A stretch of 39,214 bases of DNA from a virus (lineage: Duplodnaviria > Heunggongvirae > Uroviricota > Caudoviricetes). A model generated the notes under the pieces. The model was not told the origin of the DNA. It saw only the letters and a program-made list of their open reading frames with translations, and made no database searches. The stretch lies in IMG/VR virus record IMGVR_UViG_2541047122_000029; one strand, written 5' to 3'. The position numbers and the translations under genes were made by a program. Numbering within the stretch: the stretch's first letter is position 1; the number at the start of each line of letters is the position of its first letter. This document shows positions 30,954 to 39,214 of this stretch, in pieces.

Positions 30954-31504
30954 CCCTGACCCCGCATCAGCGCGCCCTGTTGCAGTTGCTGCCTGACGGG
31001 CTGGCATGGGATAAGCGGCCGTCATCCGTTCTTGCAGCTTTGTGCCTGGGCCTCAGTCATTCCACGGAGCGTGTTTCCTGGACCGGTAACCAGATGCTGG
31101 CAGAACGTTTTCCTGATTCATCCCGTCTGCTGCTGGAAGACTGGGAGCGTTATCTGGGGTTACCGGAATGTGATATGACCGGCGCAACCATTCAGGAACG
31201 TCAGCGTTATGCAGGGAATAAATACCGGATGAAACCCTCTCTTAACCGTGAATTTTATATCCGGTTTGCGGCAGAGTTTGGTTATGAAATAGATATTCAG
31301 CCATCACCGGATTCACAGTGGGTCAGTATTGTCACGATAAACAGTGAAACCGGCTACCGGAATATGAATGTGCTGGATGATATTCTCACCCCGCTGCGTA
31401 TTTATGAGGGTGGTGCGCTGGAATGTATTCTGAACCGTTATAAGCCTGCATGGCAGACGTTTATTTACGTATATGCAAACAGTCACGAAGAGGAGACTAT
31501 TTAA
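30944..31504 (+). CDS. Tail protein (Mu gp48-like)
   Basis: 186-aa ORF preceding the tail-fibre gene. Confidence 0.7.
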   Translation: MAVTLTPHQRALLQLLPDGLAWDKRPSSVLAALCLGLSHSTERVSWTGNQMLAERFPDSSRLLLEDWERYLGLPECDMTGATIQERQRYAGNKYRMKPSLNREFYIRFAAEFGYEIDIQPSPDSQWVSIVTINSETGYRNMNVLDDILTPLRIYEGGALECILNRYKPAWQTFIYVYANSHEEETI

Positions 31505-32415
31505 TGTTCCATGTTGATAATAATTCCGGCGTGGCGAATATGCCTGAACTGGCTCCGGCGCAGAGTAATACCACCACCTGGTTTACCGAAGGTGACGGAC
31601 AAAAAGGTATCAGCTGGATTGGTCAGGACTGGCTGAATATTCTCCAGGCCGAACTGCTGAATATTCTGGCTGAAGCCAGTATTCAGCCGGATAAGGCGCA
31701 GTTAAACCAGCTTACGCTGTCCATTAAAGCCATTATCGCTGCGAATGCCTTTTCCCGGAAAAACAACCTGAAAGAAATTGCTGATGCCGGTGCGGAAGCC
31801 CAGCGTCTGGCCCGTGGTTATCTTGGTCTGGGGACGCTTGCCACAAAAAACAGTCTTGGTCCCGCTGACGTTAATGCCCTGGCGAAGGATCAGAACCTTG
31901 CCGACCTGGAGAATGCGGAAACCGCCCGTAATAATCTGGATGTTTACAGCAGGAGCGAAGGTGATAACCGTTACCTGCGCAGGGAGCAGAACGGCGCAGA
32001 CATTCCGGATAAAGGCGCTTTTATCGATAACGTCGGTTTACGGGAAACGGTAAATAAGGCTGCTGATGCCCTGCCATCGGGTGGAACCGCCGTGGCAGCA
32101 AACAGACTCGCCACCCCAAGAAATATTAATGGCGTTCCTTTTGACGGAACGCAGGATATCAACATCACGTCAGGAATGACGCAGTCAACCGCAGATGGCC
32201 GGTATGTACAGAATGTTCAGCTTGGAGCACAGAGCTATCATTCACCCGGAGGCAATGAAATATCATGGAATTACAGCGCACCTTCCGGTTGTATGCTTTC
32301 CGGTATTAACGTGCAGGAAACCGGCTCCCGGTCTGCGGACAATATCGGTGGGGTCTATTATCGCCCGGTTCAGATTTATATTAATAATGCCTGGAGAACG
32401 GTAAGTTCAGTGTAA
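31504..32415 (+). CDS. Tail fibre protein (Mu S-like); constant N-terminal part plus variable C-terminal part in the current orientation
   Basis: ATG 31504 inside track ORF 31450-32415 (TAATG overlap). The 3' part from about 32035 lies inside the invertible segment and is paralogous to the minus-strand segment 33093-33458. Confidence 0.8.
   Translation: MFHVDNNSGVANMPELAPAQSNTTTWFTEGDGQKGISWIGQDWLNILQAELLNILAEASIQPDKAQLNQLTLSIKAIIAANAFSRKNNLKEIADAGAEAQRLARGYLGLGTLATKNSLGPADVNALAKDQNLADLENAETARNNLDVYSRSEGDNRYLRREQNGADIPDKGAFIDNVGLRETVNKAADALPSGGTAVAANRLATPRNINGVPFDGTQDINITSGMTQSTADGRYVQNVQLGAQSYHSPGGNEISWNYSAPSGCMLSGINVQETGSRSADNIGGVYYRPVQIYINNAWRTVSSV
32021..32046. other. gix-like crossover site (left) of Gin-type invertible segment
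   Basis: TTATCGATAACG-TC-GGTTTACGGGAA, 12-bp half-sites around a 2-bp core at 32033-32034; resembles Mu gix / Salmonella hix half-sites as recalled; inside the tail-fibre gene where homology with the minus-strand segment begins. Confidence 0.65.
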
Positions 32416-32449: not shown

Positions 32450-32971
32450 TTATTCCGGTTTTTCCGGCCAGGGAATCGCCTGGTAATGCCCCTCACTGGC
32501 AATATCATTAAAGTGCATTTCTTTAAGCTGTCGGATATACGCCATCCAGCGCGTCAGCTGTAATTTATTTTCATCGCTAATCATGTCCAGTTTTAATTCT
32601 GTTTTCCAGTCATCCACGGTTTCGTTGGCTTCCTGGAGCAGCGATGAGCGACGCTTTTCAGCAACCGTCTTCCAGTTTACCGGCACCTTTGATATCAGGC
32701 CATCAGAAAACTGCCAGTTACCGTCAATATTCACACCTTCCGGCAGTTCGTCCACTTCAACAACAGTAAAACCTGCCGGATATAAAGCAGAGACATCTTC
32801 AGCAACAGAGCAGATAATACCCGTTACAGGCGAAATACAGAGTTTGTATTTCTTTGTGAAAAGCGGGATAGATTCATAAAAATCCCTTCCGTCCTCACTC
32901 TGGAAATACTGAACATCCTCACCATAGGGTTTGTCTTTCGGGTAATATCGTTTGACATTAATCAGTTGCAT
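32450..32971 (-). CDS. Tail fibre assembly protein (Mu U/U'-like chaperone)
   Basis: Minus-strand ATG at 32971 (RBS GGTGA) inside track ORF 32450-33022; N-terminus MQLINVKRYYPKDKP... and C-terminus ...WPEKPE resemble Mu U as I recall it. Confidence 0.8.
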   Translation of the reverse strand: MQLINVKRYYPKDKPYGEDVQYFQSEDGRDFYESIPLFTKKYKLCISPVTGIICSVAEDVSALYPAGFTVVEVDELPEGVNIDGNWQFSDGLISKVPVNWKTVAEKRRSSLLQEANETVDDWKTELKLDMISDENKLQLTRWMAYIRQLKEMHFNDIASEGHYQAIPWPEKPE

Positions 32972-33092
32972 AAACATCACCATGTAAATCAATGATAAAA
33001 ACAGGAATAATACTATCGCCATATACAGGCAATGCTTGTCTGAAATAACGCATATTTCAGATGCTGGCTGCTGTGTGCTATGCCCCCGTTAA

Positions 33093-33458
33093 TTAAATAC
33101 TTGCAGCGGATACCCAATGCCCATTAATACAATATTGTATCTGTCTGTAATAAACACGGTCATCACCACCACGCATTTCCCAGTCTCCGTTAGTCTTAAA
33201 ACCGGTAATCACATTTCCTGATGACAGGGAGTAATTATATTCCAGTCCGCCGCTTAATGCCTGCGCTCCCAGTCTTACCCCTGTAACATAACGCTGATTG
33301 GCCGTTGATTCCGGCATTCCTGACGTAATGTTTATATCCTGCGTGCCGTCAAAGGCGACACCATTGATTCTGCGGGCATTTGCCAGCCTGCTTGCTGCAA
33401 CAGCCGTACCGTTTGATGGCAGGGCATTCGCGGCCCTGTTTACCGTATCCCGTAAACC
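33093..33458 (-). CDS. Alternative tail-fibre C-terminal segment (S'v-like; no own start, expressed only after inversion)
   Basis: Minus-strand frame open from the crossover site to the stop at 33093-33095; encodes RDTVNRAANALPSNGTAVAAS...GTQDINITSGM..., paralogous to fibre residues LRETVNKAADALPSGGTAVAAN...; a TGA lies in frame just upstream of the site. Confidence 0.7.
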   Translation of the reverse strand, partial: GLRDTVNRAANALPSNGTAVAASRLANARRINGVAFDGTQDINITSGMPESTANQRYVTGVRLGAQALSGGLEYNYSLSSGNVITGFKTNGDWEMRGGDDRVYYRQIQYCINGHWVSAASI

Positions 33459-33472
33459 GAGGTTTCAGGGAT
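33447..33472. other. gix-like crossover site (right) of Gin-type invertible segment
   Basis: ATCCCGTAAACC-GA-GGTTTCAGGGAT, near-perfect palindrome with 2-bp core at 33459-33460, inverted relative to the left site; about 55 bp upstream of the invertase start. Confidence 0.7.
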
Positions 33473-33526: not shown

Positions 33527-34087
33527 ATGCTGATTGGCTATATACGCGTATCAACAAATGACCAGAACACAGGTTTACAAAGAAATGCGCTGGAATGTGC
33601 AGGATGTGAGCAGATTTTTGAAGACAAAATGAGTGGTAAAACGACACAGCGGCCGGGACTGAAGCGGGCACTGAAGAAACTAAAACCCGGTGACACGCTG
33701 ATGGTCTGGAAACTGGACAGGCTGGGGCGCAGTATGCGCCACCTTGTTGCGCTGACAGATGAATTACAGCAACAGGGGATAAATTTTCGTAGTTTTACTG
33801 ACAACATTGATACGTCAACCCCCATGGGGCGCTTCTTTTTTCACATAATGGGTGCGCTGGCAGAAATGGAGCGTGAATTAATTGTCGAACGGACACGGGC
33901 TGGTCTTGCAGCTGCCCGTGAAAGGGGACGAACCGGCGGCAGACCCCGCCGTCTCACGCAGGAACAATACGAGCAGGTCGGGCGTTTACTGGCCGGGGGT
34001 GTCAGTCGAAGACAGGTGGCACTTATTTTTGATATCGGTCTTTCAACCCTTTATCGTTATTATCCTGCGAGCGTTTCGGAAAAATAA
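33527..34087 (+). CDS. gin: Gin/Hin/Cin-family serine DNA invertase
   Basis: 186 aa; resolvase-type catalytic N-terminus MLIGYIRVSTNDQNTGLQ (catalytic Ser), C-terminal HTH; RBS AAGGAAGG upstream. Confidence 0.9.
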   Translation: MLIGYIRVSTNDQNTGLQRNALECAGCEQIFEDKMSGKTTQRPGLKRALKKLKPGDTLMVWKLDRLGRSMRHLVALTDELQQQGINFRSFTDNIDTSTPMGRFFFHIMGALAEMERELIVERTRAGLAAARERGRTGGRPRRLTQEQYEQVGRLLAGGVSRRQVALIFDIGLSTLYRYYPASVSEK

Positions 34088-34186
34088 GACGCTCTCTTTG
34101 TTGGGCCTTTACTGAATTAACGCAAAATGGCGTTTATCGGTCTGTGGATATGATAATTCAGTTTATTCAGGAACAGGCTGATTATT

Positions 34187-36226
34187 ATGACGTCCAAATG
34201 GGTTCAACTATCATCAATGCCCGGAAACTTTACTGTTAAAGTTTCCGGTGGTACAGCGGCATTTCTTGAGGCTCCCTTTCCTCCGGCCGAAACAAAAGGA
34301 GGAATGACATTTGCTGACTGTCTCATCAGTTTTAATACACGGGATTGCCTGTGGGTAAGGCCAGTATCCGGTGATCCGAGTGTGGAAATTACCGGAGCGG
34401 GTATTGGTGCGGTCATTCCGTTAAGTGCTGATGTTGCCGGTACTGCTGAACCGTCAGACTGGGATAATGCTGAAACACATACCCGTCCGTCAGGAAATGA
34501 AACTGCTTCCAGCTCCCCTTCCTGGTATTACGTGGTGGTTCTTGCTGGTCAGTCAAACGGTATGGCTTACGGTGAAGGTCTGCCACTGCCGGAGACATAT
34601 GACCGCCCCGAACCGCGTATTATGCAGTTAGCCCGTCGCAGTACAGTCACGCCGGGAGGTAAAGCCTGTCAGTATAACGACATCATTCTGGCCGACCACT
34701 GTCTGCATGATGTGCAGGATATGAGTGGAAAAAATCACCCGAAAGCGGATGTGGCTAAAGGGCAATATGGCACCGTGGGTCAGGGGCTTCACATTGCCAA
34801 AAAACTGCTGCCGTTTATTCCGGCAGATGCGGGGATTCTGCTGGTTCCCTGCTGCCGTGGTGGTTCTGCATTCACGGCGGGTGCTGACGGCACGTACAGT
34901 GACAGCACGGGTGCTTCAGAGGACTCAGCCCGCTGGGGTGTGGATAAGCCGCTGTATAAGGACTTAATCAGCCGGACAAAAGCGGCACTGGCGAAGAACC
35001 CGAAAAACCGCCTGCTTGCTGTGGTGTGGATGCAGGGCGAGTTTGATATTGATGCGAAGCCGACGGAGCATTCTGCGCTGTTTCTGGCGATGGTGGAAAA
35101 ATTCCGCGCAGACCTGGCTGAACAGGCGGAACAGTGTACCGGTGGCAGTGCTGCTGGCGTTCCGTGGATTTGTGGTGATACCACGTATTTCTGGAAACAG
35201 AAAAACGAACAGGCATACCAGGCAATCTATGACGGCTACAAAAATAAAACAGATAAAAACATTCATTTCGTCCCATTAATGACAGATGAAAATGGCGCGA
35301 ATGTACCCACCAACAATCCGGCAGAAGACCCGGATATTGAATCCATTGGTTATTACGGCTCAACGTGGCGTAACAGTGCCGCCACCTGGACATCTACGGA
35401 CCGGGCCAGCCATTTCAGTTCATGGGCACGTCGTGGGATTATTTCCGACCGTCTGGCCACGGCAGTTCTGACTCATGCGGGGCGAACCACAGTAAAAGCC
35501 GATGTTCCATCTTCTGAAACTGAAGCACCAGTGCCGTCACCTTCAGAAACTGAAGCAGTAACCACAACACTGCTGTCTTACCGTGTCAGTGAGTCAGAAG
35601 GAAATCTGAAAGCCCAGGGCTGGGAGCCGGCTGGCGGTAAAGCTGAAATTATCAGTGATGCAGGAGGCACAGGTGGTAAGGCAATGAAACTGACCAAGGA
35701 AACAGGTAAATCATCCTGGTATCTGGATCATGATGCCGGTACTGGTGCTGAACTGCTGAAAAATGGTGGTTTAATCAGTTGTCGTTTTAAAGTACCGGGC
35801 GACCTGGTGGCAAACCAGTATGTCATGGCGCTTTACTGGCCGGTTTCCTCTCTGCCGCAGGGTGTCACCCTGACAGGGGATGCAGGGAATAATCTGCTGG
35901 CATCGTTCTACATCCAGACAGACGCAAAAGACCTGAATGTGATGTACCACAATGCAAAAGTGGCAACAAATAACCAGAAACTGGGAACCTTTGGTGCATT
36001 TGATAATGAATGGCATACGCTGGCCTTCCGTTTTGCAGGAAATAACAGCCTTCAGGTTATTCCGGTTATTGATGGTCAGGATGGTGCCGCGTTTACCCTG
36101 ACGCAGTCACCAGTAGGAACTTTCCCGGTGGACAAACTCCGCGTAACGGATATCACAAAAAATGCAACTTACCCGGTGCTGATTGACAGCATTGTGGTGG
36201 AAGTGAAAAAAGCGGTAACAGAATAA
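34187..36226 (+). CDS. Multidomain SGNH/SASA-type carbohydrate esterase with Pro/Ser/Thr/Glu-rich linker and C-terminal lectin-like domain (cargo gene)
   Basis: 679 aa; AGQSNGMAYGEG (catalytic-Ser GQSN block), WMQGEFD and DRASHF motifs match sialate O-acetylesterase-type domains as recalled; linker PSSETEAPVPSPSETEA; no N-terminal signal peptide; sits between gin and com/mom, where Mu has no gene. Confidence 0.75.
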   Translation: MTSKWVQLSSMPGNFTVKVSGGTAAFLEAPFPPAETKGGMTFADCLISFNTRDCLWVRPVSGDPSVEITGAGIGAVIPLSADVAGTAEPSDWDNAETHTRPSGNETASSSPSWYYVVVLAGQSNGMAYGEGLPLPETYDRPEPRIMQLARRSTVTPGGKACQYNDIILADHCLHDVQDMSGKNHPKADVAKGQYGTVGQGLHIAKKLLPFIPADAGILLVPCCRGGSAFTAGADGTYSDSTGASEDSARWGVDKPLYKDLISRTKAALAKNPKNRLLAVVWMQGEFDIDAKPTEHSALFLAMVEKFRADLAEQAEQCTGGSAAGVPWICGDTTYFWKQKNEQAYQAIYDGYKNKTDKNIHFVPLMTDENGANVPTNNPAEDPDIESIGYYGSTWRNSAATWTSTDRASHFSSWARRGIISDRLATAVLTHAGRTTVKADVPSSETEAPVPSPSETEAVTTTLLSYRVSESEGNLKAQGWEPAGGKAEIISDAGGTGGKAMKLTKETGKSSWYLDHDAGTGAELLKNGGLISCRFKVPGDLVANQYVMALYWPVSSLPQGVTLTGDAGNNLLASFYIQTDAKDLNVMYHNAKVATNNQKLGTFGAFDNEWHTLAFRFAGNNSLQVIPVIDGQDGAAFTLTQSPVGTFPVDKLRVTDITKNATYPVLIDSIVVEVKKAVTE

Positions 36227-36231
36227 AAAAA

Positions 36232-36260
36232 TCCCGCCGGTCATGATATGGCTGGCGGGA
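36232..36260. other. Stem-loop immediately downstream of the esterase gene
   Basis: TCCCGCC (36232-36238) / GGCGGGA (36254-36260); preceded by A7 (36224-36230), so it reads as hairpin plus U-run on the minus strand; no U-tract after it on the + strand. Confidence 0.4.
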
Positions 36261-36372
36261 GCTACCTAACCCATAAAGGAAAATAAAAATACTCCCGAAG
36301 GAGTGGTTATCAGTCGCTTCGATGTTTTTACCCGATAACGAATTATGTAGTCAATATCAAAGGTAAGGTTAT

Positions 36373-36555
36373 ATGACATTCGTTCATACAATGCTGCTTT
36401 ATTTCTGCGCAGTGGTCAGTGCGTTATATCTGGTGAGCGGCGGTTATAAGGTCATCAGAAATTATATTCGCCGTAAAATTGATGATGCGGCAGCTGAAAA
36501 ACTCAGTAAAACAGCACAGGCACCGTCATCCCCAAACGACCCGACCCCGCTCTGA
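36373..36555 (+). CDS. Small single-pass membrane protein (cargo, unknown function)
   Basis: 60 aa; TM helix MLLYFCAVVSALYLVSGGY then charged tail; RBS AAGGTAAGG upstream. Confidence 0.55.
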   Translation: MTFVHTMLLYFCAVVSALYLVSGGYKVIRNYIRRKIDDAAAEKLSKTAQAPSSPNDPTPL

Positions 36556-36590: not shown

Positions 36591-36836
36591 ATGCCAGAGA
36601 TTAAAGGCACGGTTACTGAAGAGCTTGTCAAACAGGCACTTTATTCTGAAGAAGTGAACCGCGTGCTGAAGGCGCAGGTTCGCAAGGATTTTGAGGCACA
36701 AATCGACGCATATGTTGATGAAGTGCTGGCCCGAATGGTTGGCCATTCTCCGGCTGAAAACAGCACGGAGAATGAGCCTCAAGCCGTAGAGCAACCAGAG
36801 CCGGTTCAGCCCGGAACTGACGGTACTATGATGTAA
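36591..36836 (+). CDS. Small acidic helical protein (cargo, unknown function)
   Basis: 81 aa; RBS AAAGGAG 8 nt upstream of ATG; followed by a clean terminator. Confidence 0.65.
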   Translation: MPEIKGTVTEELVKQALYSEEVNRVLKAQVRKDFEAQIDAYVDEVLARMVGHSPAENSTENEPQAVEQPEPVQPGTDGTMM

Positions 36837-36845
36837 CAATACCGA

Positions 36846-36876
36846 CCGGCAGGTTTCCCTGCCGGGTGAATTTGTT
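36846..36876 (+). terminator. Rho-independent terminator after the small two-gene cassette
   Basis: CCGGCAGG (36846-36853) / CCTGCCGG (36858-36865), loop TTTC, then GTGAATTTGTT. Confidence 0.7.
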
Positions 36877-37045
36877 AATGCACGTTTTGTGTACTTTCCC
36901 TCCGGGGAGAACAGGCAGGACATATCAGCATCCTGAAACAGGACGCATTTTGGGGTTTGTATGTCTTGCCATTTTGAGATCGAGAACGGCGATAGATGAG
37001 CTGTAAGGGAGTCTTACAGGCAGGGCAAACAGGCTCTTTATCCAT
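36875..37045 (-). CDS. Possible small zinc-ribbon protein, divergent from com/mom (low confidence)
   Basis: Minus-strand 56-aa ORF MDKEPVCPACKTPLQ...CPACSPRRE with two CPAC pairs; AAGGAG 9 nt upstream of ATG at 37045; track ORF 36875-37069 starts 8 codons earlier. Confidence 0.3.
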   Translation of the reverse strand: MDKEPVCPACKTPLQLIYRRSRSQNGKTYKPQNASCFRMLICPACSPRRESTQNVH

Positions 37046-37139
37046 GATAAAGATCTCCTTTTTATGCATCTCTGCTTTACAGGAGACCGGGGAATATCAT
37101 AGGATACGACACGAGCTCGAAGTAAAGCATTGATGCGAA

Positions 37140-37410
37140 TTTGTTCCAGGTCCAGATAGCTGTAACTATCTGGACCTCCCTTTATGTAGTATCCTGTTGA
37201 TTTGAAACATACTACATATACGCGCGATCCTACCTTCACTGTATAAAAAGTCAATAAAATGATCATTTTATGATCGTTTTCACCACCTAAGTCTTCGTTT
37301 TCTTTAAGTAAATAATCACCGCCCTGAATCATTGTTGATGACTTTTCAATCTATTTGTTGTATCAATTAAACAAATCGAATCGATCGTTTTTGTCGATCG
37401 ATTGCATGAG
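37140..37410. promoter_or_regulatory. com/mom upstream control region (palindromes plus GATC cluster, likely Dam-methylation-sensitive promoter)
   Basis: AT-rich. 12-bp inverted repeat AGGTCCAGATAG (37148-37159) / CTATCTGGACCT (37166-37177); 9-bp inverted repeat ATGTAGTAT (37184-37192) / ATACTACAT (37209-37217); GATC at 37226, 37261, 37272, 37383, 37396. Confidence 0.6.
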
Positions 37411-37446
37411 AAAGGCATCAACAACAAAGCAGGAGGTTATGCGGCC

Positions 37447-37647
37447 ATGTATCGAAACATACGGTGCCGACACTGCAATAAGCTACTGGCACGGGCCAGT
37501 TTCAGTTATCTGGAAGTAAAATGTCCGCGCTGTAAAACCCTCAATCAAATCACATCTCCGAGCGCCACAGAGCACCCCACATACACAAGGAAATCCTGTC
37601 GTGGGGAACAGAAAGCAAGTCACATCCCGTATCATCAGCACGCCTGA
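37447..37647 (+). CDS. com: Com-like zinc-finger translational activator of mom
   Basis: ATG 37447 (RBS AGGAGG) inside track ORF 37402-37647; [13 protein letters not shown]...[12 protein letters not shown] matches Mu Com (IRCKNCNKLLFKA...IRCPRCKRH) as I recall it; overlaps the next gene. Confidence 0.75.
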
Positions 37648-38338
37648 ACTTATTCGCTATAACGACAATATCGTTGGTTATGGCTCCCGTGAGTTGCGGG
37701 TTGAGACAATAAGTTGCTGGCTGGCCAGACTGGTCATCGTCAATAAACATTACAGCCACCGTTTCGTAAATAACTCCTACCTTCATCTGGGCATATTTTC
37801 AGAACGGGAGCTGGTTGGCGTAATGCAATGGGGCTATGCCCTTAATCCAAACAGTGGTGCACGCGTCGTAACGGGCACGCGGAACCGTGAATATATGGAG
37901 CTTAACCGGTTATGGCTGCATGACTGTATGCCGAGAAACTCCGAATCAAGGGCAATCAGTTACGCGCTCAAGCTAATCAGGCAGCTTTATCCGCAGGTAC
38001 AGTGGGTTCAGTCGTTTGCAGATGAGCGTTGTGGCTGTCTTGGTGTCGTGTATCAGGCAAGCAATTTTGATTATGTAGGCAGCCACGAATCAACATTCTA
38101 TGAACTTGATGGCGAGTGGTATCACGAGATTTGCAGGAATGCCATTAAACGAGGCGGACAGCGAGGTGAACATCTGAGGGCTAATATCGACAGAGCCAGT
38201 GTTCATAAATTCCGTCAGTTTCGTTACATCCGGTTTCTGAACAAGAGGGCCAGAAAACGCCTCAACACAAAGCTATTCAAAGTCCAGCCTTACCCAAAAC
38301 CACAAACAGTTAAAACTGGTTTAAAAGAGAGTGAGTGA
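37601..38338 (+). CDS. mom: Mom-like DNA modification protein (anti-restriction)
   Basis: 245-aa ORF overlapping the end of com; ...[16 protein letters not shown]...[23 protein letters not shown] resembles Mu Mom as I recall it. Start uncertain (GTG 37601 in track). Confidence 0.75.
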
Positions 38339-38449: not shown

Positions 38450-38920
38450 AAAATCGCCGCGCTATAGGCTTTTGCTGAGTTACAAAGGCGAATTCTGGAT
38501 AATCAACAGACAGGGAGTGCGCAATCTGATGCAGCATTGCTCTGGAGTTTTTGGAACTCTTACTCTGCAGATGAACTGGTCGATGACTTAGTCATTCGCT
38601 GTGGTCTGGAAAGCGCCGTTGAAATCGTCCTTTTTGCCCTTCAACTCAAATATAAACCAGTAAAAGGCGCAGTAACCACCATCATTCCACCTAATCACGA
38701 AGCAGAATCGCTACCTAGTTAGCATCAACGTCTATGTCATCATCTTTCACTCGCTTCAGAAGATGAGTGGCAACGCTGTGTAGATAAAGTACTCACCGCC
38801 ATTCCGACGCTATCCCCCGCACGGCAACCTTTTGCGGCGTTACTGCTCCCTGAACGCCCGGATATCGCCCATGCTATAGATCTACGCTATGCAGACCAAA
38901 ACGTCCCGGCGATGACCTGG

Positions 38921-39214
38921 TGAACCGCCCCGGGTTTCCTGGAGAGTGTTTTATCTGTGAACTCAGGCTGCCAGATCATCGTTTCCGATGGAAGCATAAT
39001 AAGCTTTTTCTGCTTCTGCCGGAGGAGTATGGCCCAGCCTTCCCAGCAATCGTCGATTGTTATACCAGTCCACCCACGTTAGTGTGGCCAGTTCCACTTC
39101 TGCACGGTTTTTCCAGCTCTTACGGTGTATTACCTCCGCTTTGTAAAGACCATTGATGCTCTCAGCCATCGCGTTGTCATACGAGTCGCCTGTACTCCCT
39201 GTTGATGCCAGTAA
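38921..39214 (-). mobile_element. IS3-family insertion sequence, partial (continues past window end)
   Basis: Terminal sequence TGAACCGCCCCGGGTTTCCTGGAGAGTG from 38921; minus-strand transposase 3' end lies 42 bp inside it. Confidence 0.8.
38963..39214 (-). CDS. IS3-family transposase OrfB, C-terminal fragment (5' part outside window)
   Basis: Minus-strand frame open to the window edge: ...GDSYDNAMAESINGLYKAEVIHRKSW..., matching the DDE-integrase C-terminal block of IS3-family OrfB; stop at 38963-38965. Confidence 0.8.
   Translation of the reverse strand, partial: LLASTGSTGDSYDNAMAESINGLYKAEVIHRKSWKNRAEVELATLTWVDWYNNRRLLGRLGHTPPAEAEKAYYASIGNDDLAA

Follow-up and report, generated by a model that had tools for sequence, protein, structure and literature searches.

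What is a sialate esterase gene doing between gin and com in a Mu-like prophage, and how does its product relate to the esterases already described from other phages? The question is raised by a stretch of 39,214 nt (IMG/VR record IMGVR_UViG_2541047122_000029; Caudoviricetes), the whole of which is referred to here as the window. In Mu 94 bp separate the gin stop codon from the com start codon, whereas in the window some 3.3 kb carrying four genes (nanS-p, a DUF1378 gene, a DUF826 gene and a gene on the reverse strand) lie between the two, and comparison of the junctions places the limits of this extra block at about 34065 and 37355. The first of the four is an open reading frame (ORF) of 679 aa (72 kDa) with an ATG start at 34187..36226 (+); a longer reading is impossible because an in-frame stop codon lies upstream at 34154. 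An earlier note, made from the letters of the sequence alone, had pointed to a 679-aa protein in a place where Mu has no gene and was right on both counts, the interval that it gave (34088–36270) taking in, besides this ORF, the 99 nt that follow gin and 44 nt on the 3′ side. To judge from its relatives, the gene very probably encodes a NanS-p-type 9-O-acetyl-sialate esterase of an Sp18-type Mu-like prophage found in Shiga-toxigenic Escherichia coli (STEC), this confidence covering both family identity and chemistry. The esterase as such is ordinary; the novelty lies in the N-terminus, where on sequence comparison the DUF1737 capsid anchor of the lambdoid enzymes is replaced by an unrelated β-barrel of about 80 aa. 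A clean exchange of anchors between phages of different architecture gives a lead that is timely and can be tested, and it lets one ask whether differently built phages each tether a mucus-acting enzyme to their own particle. In discussions of Shiga toxin (Stx) phages NanS-p figures as an accessory for fitness or virulence, and the literature that we found treats it as a trait of lambdoid phages; our literature search found no paper on nanS-p in a Mu-like phage. Here a transposable prophage of the Mu-like kind has this enzyme cassette as a fixed component. The gene is labelled only ‘DUF6645 domain-containing protein’ in RefSeq, and Mu-like copies that carry this label may be missed when the nanS-p alleles of a strain are counted.

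A NanS-p-type esterase and its likely substrate

The protein matches Pfam SASA (PF03629) over residues 116–312 (E=5.5e-12, above the gathering score), Pfam DUF6645 (PF20350) over residues 524–642 (E=4e-70), PHROG phrog_143 (E=0), the structure of E. coli NanS (PDB 3pt5) over residues 104–428 (E=5e-118) and that of a NanS-p C-terminal domain (PDB 6yp6) over residues 459–674 (E=3e-112). The SASA/SGNH esterase core proposed in the earlier note is borne out, the SGNH fold on which that proposal had been made to depend being found by profile and PDB matches alike. The class of esterase was correctly named, but it was not recognized that the protein belongs to the already described NanS-p family, as the phrog_143 match and more than 290 Stx-phage records matching nanS-p at 60–90% DNA identity indicate. 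The DNA similarity to nanS-p of Stx phages starts at 34532, which is codon 116. The catalytic domain (residues 113–435; 34523..35491, +) is 82% identical in amino acid sequence to that of phage 1717 NanS-p. It is homologous over its full length to chromosomal NanS (YjhS, 3pt5), with the GQSN serine and the RxSH histidine aligned, although the chromosomal enzyme is a single domain and lacks both the N-terminal barrel with its linker and the lectin domain of the window protein. The two residues concerned are Ser123 (34553–34555; VLAGQSNGM) and His409 (35411–35413; DRASHFS), corresponding to what we take to be Ser19 and His301 in NanS numbering, which is consistent with the offsets of the 3pt5 alignment. 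The window protein thus has the NanS-type SGNH blocks, namely the serine of GQSN and the histidine of RSSH/RASH without the usual aspartate (motif definition from PMC10462455). The catalytic domain is followed by a Pro/Ser/Glu-rich linker (residues 436–460; 35492..35566, +; KADVPSSETEAPVPSPSETEAV) that lines up with the linker between the domains of phage 1717 NanS-p; it had earlier been called a repeat linker, a fair description of a short imperfect repeat in which SETEA occurs twice. The remainder of the protein (residues 461–679, with the stop codon; 35567..36226, +) is a lectin-like jelly-roll carbohydrate-binding domain (DUF6645), 79% identical to that of phage 1717, and here too the 6yp6 and DUF6645 matches agree with the domain expected by the earlier note. 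For vb_24B_21 carbohydrate binding has been proposed to involve four aromatic residues (Y510, Y515, Y540 and F611; PMC10462455), and all four are kept in the window protein, as Y545, Y550, Y575 and F646.

Taken against the lambdoid NanS-p proteins of Stx and non-Stx prophages as a group (933W L0105/z1466, phi24B vb_24B_21, which is gp84, and phage 1717 gp44), the window protein shares 82% of its SASA and 79% of its DUF6645 amino acids, the Ser and His motifs, the aromatic binding residues and the position of the Pro/Ser-rich interdomain linker, and its gene is likewise followed by DUF1378 and DUF826. The likeness ends at the N-terminus, where the lambdoid proteins have DUF1737 and the window protein an unrelated barrel of about 80 aa with a linker of about 30 aa, and at the setting of the gene, which in the lambdoid phages lies between Q/stx and the holin gene but in the window has gin on one side and com/mom on the other, in a transposable prophage of Mu-like, myovirus type. 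The window gene is therefore NanS-p in catalytic domain, lectin domain and neighbourhood but not in its N-terminus or in any location in a lambdoid late region. Because of its location between gin and com/mom, neither Q antitermination nor SOS induction applies to it, so that Mu-like copies of nanS-p are not under SOS/Q control.

SGNH esterases act as receptor modifiers in some tailspikes, and the earlier note had proposed such a role here, in which the enzyme would de-O-acetylate the O-antigen of lipopolysaccharide (LPS) or the capsule on the bacterial surface for adsorption or superinfection exclusion. In keeping with this, the lectin is the most variable part of the protein (38–100% identity among relatives), as would be expected of a surface-recognition module, and one weak match to a PHROG ‘tail protein’ was seen (E=4e-5, residues 210–311). 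The idea has also been raised for NanS-p itself, as a speculation for which the authors state that there is no experimental evidence (PMC8065619). We nevertheless consider this role improbable. The catalytic domain matches the sialate-specific NanS over residues 104–428 and is 82% identical to that of one lambdoid member of a family whose lambdoid alleles de-O-acetylate Neu5,9Ac2 and the mucin O-glycans of animal hosts, with a growth advantage for the bacterial host (PMC8065619). No tail-related Pfam domain, tail-adaptor or β-helix domain was found in the protein, its gene follows gin and is not part of the tail operon, and as the protein has no export signal the surface of the lysogen itself would be out of its reach. 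Neither modification of an LPS or capsule receptor nor a second receptor-binding protein, also suggested in the earlier note, thus gains specific support from our analysis, and the likely substrate, by analogy with the lambdoid enzymes, is host mucin sialic acid and not LPS.

By the same analogy (homologues 79–82% identical; PMC8065619) the enzyme would remove 9-O-acetyl groups from Neu5,9Ac2 and from acetylated gut mucin O-glycans, the lectin domain would hold it on the glycan and the de-O-acetylated sialic acid would become usable by E. coli. No signal peptide and no hydrophobic N-terminal stretch were found in the window protein, and for this reason the enzyme is predicted to meet its substrate only upon phage-induced cell lysis.

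The N-terminal domain and its relatives

The N-terminal domain (residues 1–80; 34187..34426, +) is predicted to be a small all-β barrel and stands where lambdoid NanS-p has DUF1737. In the AlphaFold2 model residues 5–78 form a compact six-stranded β-barrel with a mean predicted local distance difference test score (pLDDT), taken over blocks of 10 residues, of 78 for residues 1–10 and 87–92 for residues 11–70. The barrel contains no histidine. It is joined to the catalytic domain by a linker predicted to be disordered (residues 81–112, ending ...TASSSPS; 34427..34522, +; pLDDT below 50), which is also the left recombination breakpoint described below. Neither the whole protein nor residues 1–112 gave a match to DUF1737 (PF08410) at E up to 10, whereas in a control search of the same type phage 1717 NanS-p yielded PF08410 at E=1e-15, and the N-termini of the two proteins do not align. 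With the N-terminal domain as query there was no match in Pfam at E up to 10, and the PHROGs returned phrog_4772 alone (E=0.006); NCBIfam gave no match for any protein of the cassette. A fold search gave weak cupin-like matches only.

Relatives of the domain are few. A library of 1.84 billion representatives gave five matches, one of them a low-complexity repeat protein, though this library is clustered at 50% and may hide further homologues. Scans of genome contigs with a two-sequence profile of the domain and of viral contigs with its Salmonella form gave no match, and tblastn against 50,697 phage records found the domain in two only, both of them Stx-phage records with an inserted Mu-like phage. 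Every relative with a readable context lies downstream of gin in a Mu-like prophage, and three diverged lineages are represented: that of the window, a form 60% identical to it in E. coli DEC6C, Shigella sonnei and two metagenome contigs (L020–L022), and a form 29–36% identical in Salmonella enterica (L005). The Salmonella prophage is itself distant from that of the window (32% amino acid identity for baseplate J and 67% for Gin). Differences in the N-terminal domain between close alleles comprise six synonymous and two non-synonymous changes, and in all eight related loci tested the nanS-p ORF is free of internal stop codons.

Payload exchange and the possible role of the N-terminal domain

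An indication of how the N-terminal domain relates to the rest of the protein comes from comparison of the window with twelve IMG/VR loci, two loci from E. coli genomes (L002 and L018) and one GenBank Stx-phage record with an inserted Mu-like phage (L001). In four of these (L014–L017) the backbone is nearly that of the window (amino acid identity 99–100% for baseplate J, 98–99% for Gin, 100% for Com and 98–99% for Mom) and the N-terminal domain is 91–97% identical, but identity falls to 67–68% for SASA, 38–45% for the lectin and 57–59% for DUF1378. DUF826 is kept with the backbone (96–98% in all relatives), and the breakpoints lie on the left at the linker and start of SASA and on the right between DUF1378 and DUF826. 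The lectin varies independently as well (78% in L009, 86% in L001 and L007), and the catalytic Ser and His are kept in both divergent types of payload. No phage record matches the payload alleles of L014 and L017 beyond the common N-domain region. Because the N-terminal domain is conserved while SASA, lectin and DUF1378 are swapped, it appears to behave as a part of the Mu-like backbone, and esterase, lectin and DUF1378 as an exchangeable payload. The exchange of DUF1378 along with the payload may reflect a functional link to the esterase or merely the position of the breakpoint. The pattern resembles that of modular phage fibres and tailspikes, in which a distal enzyme or lectin part is swapped at a linker while the N-terminal module (91–100% identical in the present backbone) is conserved; the known fibre and spike anchors nevertheless have no relation in sequence or fold to the window protein's N-terminal domain, the gene for this protein lying outside the tail operon.

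The block as a whole is widespread. The gap after gin together with the N-terminal domain was found at 96% identity or more in 205 of 5426 complete E. coli genomes (about 4%), with up to four copies in each, and the carriers are mostly STEC from cattle and humans. When the 3′ end of gin joined to the 5′ end of com was used as query for an empty site, none of the 233 genomes carrying this gin or com showed the two adjacent. The block is fixed in this Mu-like lineage and is not sporadic cargo. The earlier note had allowed that the gene might prove to be a core tail component of related Mu-like phages; it is no core gene of the tail operon and is not present in Mu, yet it is fixed in this lineage. 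These findings bear on the notion that the gene is a decaying passenger, acquired from a lambdoid prophage and functionless in a Mu-like phage, for which one might cite the frameshift in the neighbouring reverse-strand gene of the window and the esterase gene copy of DEC6C, which is in pieces. Such decay is very hard to reconcile with a full-length ORF in the window, with an ORF free of internal stops in the eight related loci, with the retention of catalytic and binding residues and with the lack of empty sites, and the arrangement persists where baseplate proteins are only 32% identical.

In phi24B, gp84 (NanS-p) has been identified as a capsid-decoration protein by proteomics and cryo-electron microscopy, its DUF1737 domain forming a hexamer in the capsid hexons and gp84 later being self-processed at linkers containing SSP (bioRxiv 10.64898/2026.04.10.717836). 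By analogy with gp84, association of the window protein with the virion is a live possibility, though the DUF1737 anchor is replaced here. The barrel with its flexible linker could then stand in for the capsid anchor of the lambdoid proteins, and we tentatively suggest that the N-terminal domain is a lineage-specific tether or oligomerization module, probably one that fixes the enzyme to the Mu-like particle. In more general form, and with somewhat less than an even chance of being correct, NanS-p may consist of a particle anchor and an exchangeable glycan-esterase payload, the barrel encoded by 34187–34426 being the Mu-like counterpart of DUF1737. If so, the surface of Sp18-type virions would bear a sialate esterase and lectin with which to move through host mucus or hold on to it, and one and the same anchor would be fitted with different payloads in different strains.

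About equally likely is that the protein is a soluble enzyme of lysogenic conversion, freed by the lysis of some lysogens as a public good, in which the barrel serves only in folding, oligomerization or stability; this too we can put forward only as a possibility. It is the classical view of NanS-p (PMC8065619) and agrees with the place of the gene at the right end of the prophage beside gin and mom, outside the structural operons, and with the failure to find a late promoter; moreover the nearest folds are cupin barrels, which include dimerization domains, and the point at which homology to the lambdoid copies starts can account for the mosaic. On the other hand, chromosomal NanS works without an N-terminal extension (3pt5 aligns from residue 104), so that a free enzyme has no evident need for the domain, and yet the domain is kept in three diverged Mu-like lineages with few substitutions, mostly synonymous, between close alleles, while the domain that occupies the corresponding place in the lambdoid protein has been proven to be an anchor to the capsid (bioRxiv 10.64898/2026.04.10.717836).

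Several observations weigh against the tether. Lying 99 nt past gin and outside the late structural operons, nanS-p looks more like a moron than like a structural gene. In the Salmonella prophage two small genes (one encoding a helix-turn-helix protein) and a terminator separate gin from the esterase gene, and few homologues of the N-terminal domain are known. The mosaic could arise neutrally, co-resident lambdoid copies offering homology only from SASA onward. Finally, motif and generic scans of the window found no promoter or late-gene signal for nanS-p: the Mu late promoter TTAT-N6-ATAA has no match in the whole window, the late-promoter pattern CCATAACCCC with two mismatches allowed matches at chance level, candidate late-promoter gaps compared by eye have no motif in common, and promoter-like sites are below the shuffle mean, with none convincing upstream of nanS-p and no convincing terminator in the gap. 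It is the lack of a promoter or late signal, the location outside the structural operons and the neutral explanation of the mosaic that keep our estimate for the tethering step somewhat below even.

Flanking sequences, neighbouring genes and the carrier prophage

The left border of the extra block is a gin-type serine DNA invertase gene (33527..34087, +; Pfam Resolvase E=6e-51, with HTH_7), the product of which is 75% identical in amino acid sequence to Mu Gin with a C-terminal tail unlike that of Mu Gin. Mom (80%) and Com (46%) are likewise related to those of Mu, the three genes have the same order and orientation in both and GATC lies upstream of com in both; apart from the length of the gin–com gap, the window differs from the Mu right end in the Gin tail and in having no TTAT-N6-ATAA box. 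The gap of 99 nt between gin and nanS-p (34088..34186, +) holds an inverted repeat and a weak AGG/AGGA ribosome-binding site. The nanS-p gene had been credited with a ribosome-binding site of its own; this is plausible, about 9–17 nt before the ATG, but it is not strong. The inverted repeat reported at the same time is real, though its arms are of 9 bp and not 8 (ACTGAATTA at 34111–34119 and TAATTCAGT at 34154–34162). When the gap is shuffled, a perfect repeat of at least 9 bp turns up in 1.1% of cases, and among real 99-nt windows taken from this sequence 3% contain one. The right arm reads TAATTCTGT in four of the six related prophages, without a compensating change in the left arm. As it is neither conserved nor compensated among the six relatives we rejected it as a regulatory element and treated it as due to chance.

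A second and longer structure, a perfect 12-bp hairpin at 34221–34248 (CCGGAAACTTTA-CTGT-TAAAGTTTCCGG), begins 34 nt past the start codon and spans nanS-p codons 12–21. Three perfect hairpins of at least 10 bp were found in the entire 39-kb window compared with 0.1 in shuffles. In the hairpin at 34221–34248 the loop alone varies among relatives (CTGT or CCGT), and no matching palindrome is present in the Salmonella homologue. It might affect translation, or be due to chance.

Downstream of nanS-p lie the DUF1378 gene (36373..36555, +; 60 aa with one N-terminal transmembrane helix; Pfam DUF1378 E=1e-38) and the DUF826 gene (36591..36836, +; 81 aa, acidic; Pfam DUF826 E=2e-15). In phage 1717 the order is nanS-p, DUF1378, DUF826 and holin S, with spacing similar to that of the window, and Stx2a phages likewise have a holin gene after these three (PMC10462455); no holin gene follows the cassette of the window. 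The earlier idea that nanS-p and the genes downstream might together make up a larger cargo system was right in so far as the three genes form a conserved cassette. Next comes a reverse-strand gene of unknown function (36875..37332, −), the sole family match of which is phrog_26524 and the product of which has a C-terminal CxxC...CxxC zinc ribbon (CPAC...CPAC); in the window it is frameshifted by a 1-nt deletion near 37040, whereas in the O103:H2 strain CEC12044 it is intact (154 aa). Within this ORF is a hypervariable patch of about 45 nt (37138–37180), the flanks of which are about 98% identical between strains. The patch contains a perfect 12-bp hairpin (37148..37177; AGGTCCAGATAG-CTGTAA-CTATCTGGACCT) and alters the sequence of the protein. 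Other alleles of the hairpin among the relatives (L001 and L006–L018) are CCCAGCATAG-TTCCAG-CTATGCTGGG and, with one bulge, CCCAGAATAG-TTCGCG-CTATCTGGG; in three loci a tandem duplication of about 75 nt gives two hairpins in the patch, and each hairpin is followed on the + strand by (C)TTTATGTAGT. It could be a structured element, for example a terminator of the nanS-p unit, or the product of quasi-palindrome template-switch mutation.

At the right border of the block (37355..37403, +) similarity to the gin 3′ end and mom operator of Mu returns (ATCAATTAAA...), with GATC at 37383 and 37396. The com gene (37447..37647, +; Pfam Zn_ribbon_Com E=3e-12) starts about 1.2 kb downstream of the nanS-p stop codon and overlaps mom (37601..38338, +; Pfam Mom E=4.5e-77), both being annotated by the NCBI Prokaryotic Genome Annotation Pipeline (PGAP) in an identical prophage. 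Compared with that of Mu, the region upstream of com (37355–37447) is short by about 30 nt; it has two GATC sites only and no TTAT-N6-ATAA box for the C protein, for which reasons control of mom may differ from that in Mu. In L001, L007 and L012 the nanS-p block is 96–100% identical to that of the window, but Mom has no tblastn match, Com matches over its first 56 residues only and the tail region has only 82% DNA identity, so that the right end and tail genes are mosaic around a conserved nanS-p block. The DNA similarity of the window to Mu_JNE122137 stops at 37614.

The carrier was recognized as a Mu-like prophage from its Pfam matches (Resolvase, Com, Mom and Caudo_TAP), the baseplate names given by PGAP and the inverted repeats around its fibre segment. 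The flanking host genes differ between strains, which indicates a variable insertion site; Sp18 itself has been described as a prophage that is not inducible by mitomycin but has its DNA packaged efficiently (PMC2669165). Upstream of gin, inverted repeats of 179 nt (32029–32207 and 33286–33464), which are 75% complementary, enclose an invertible fibre segment. The segment contains a single tail-fibre assembly gene (32450–33022, −) adjoining an alternative fibre C-terminus (33093–33317, −), and in the present orientation no assembly gene shares a strand with the fibre gene (31450–32415). Similarity to other Mu-like prophages stops at about 38468, which is likely to be the right end of the prophage, and within the remaining sequence (38468–39214) a putative C-terminus of an IS3-family transposase was recognized at 38963–39169 (−) by reading of the translation alone. 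In E. coli DEC6C (L021, GCA_000249635.2) the early genes run directly into baseplate J, the head genes and most of the tail genes having apparently been deleted, and the esterase gene, with the 60%-type N-terminal domain, is broken into several ORFs.

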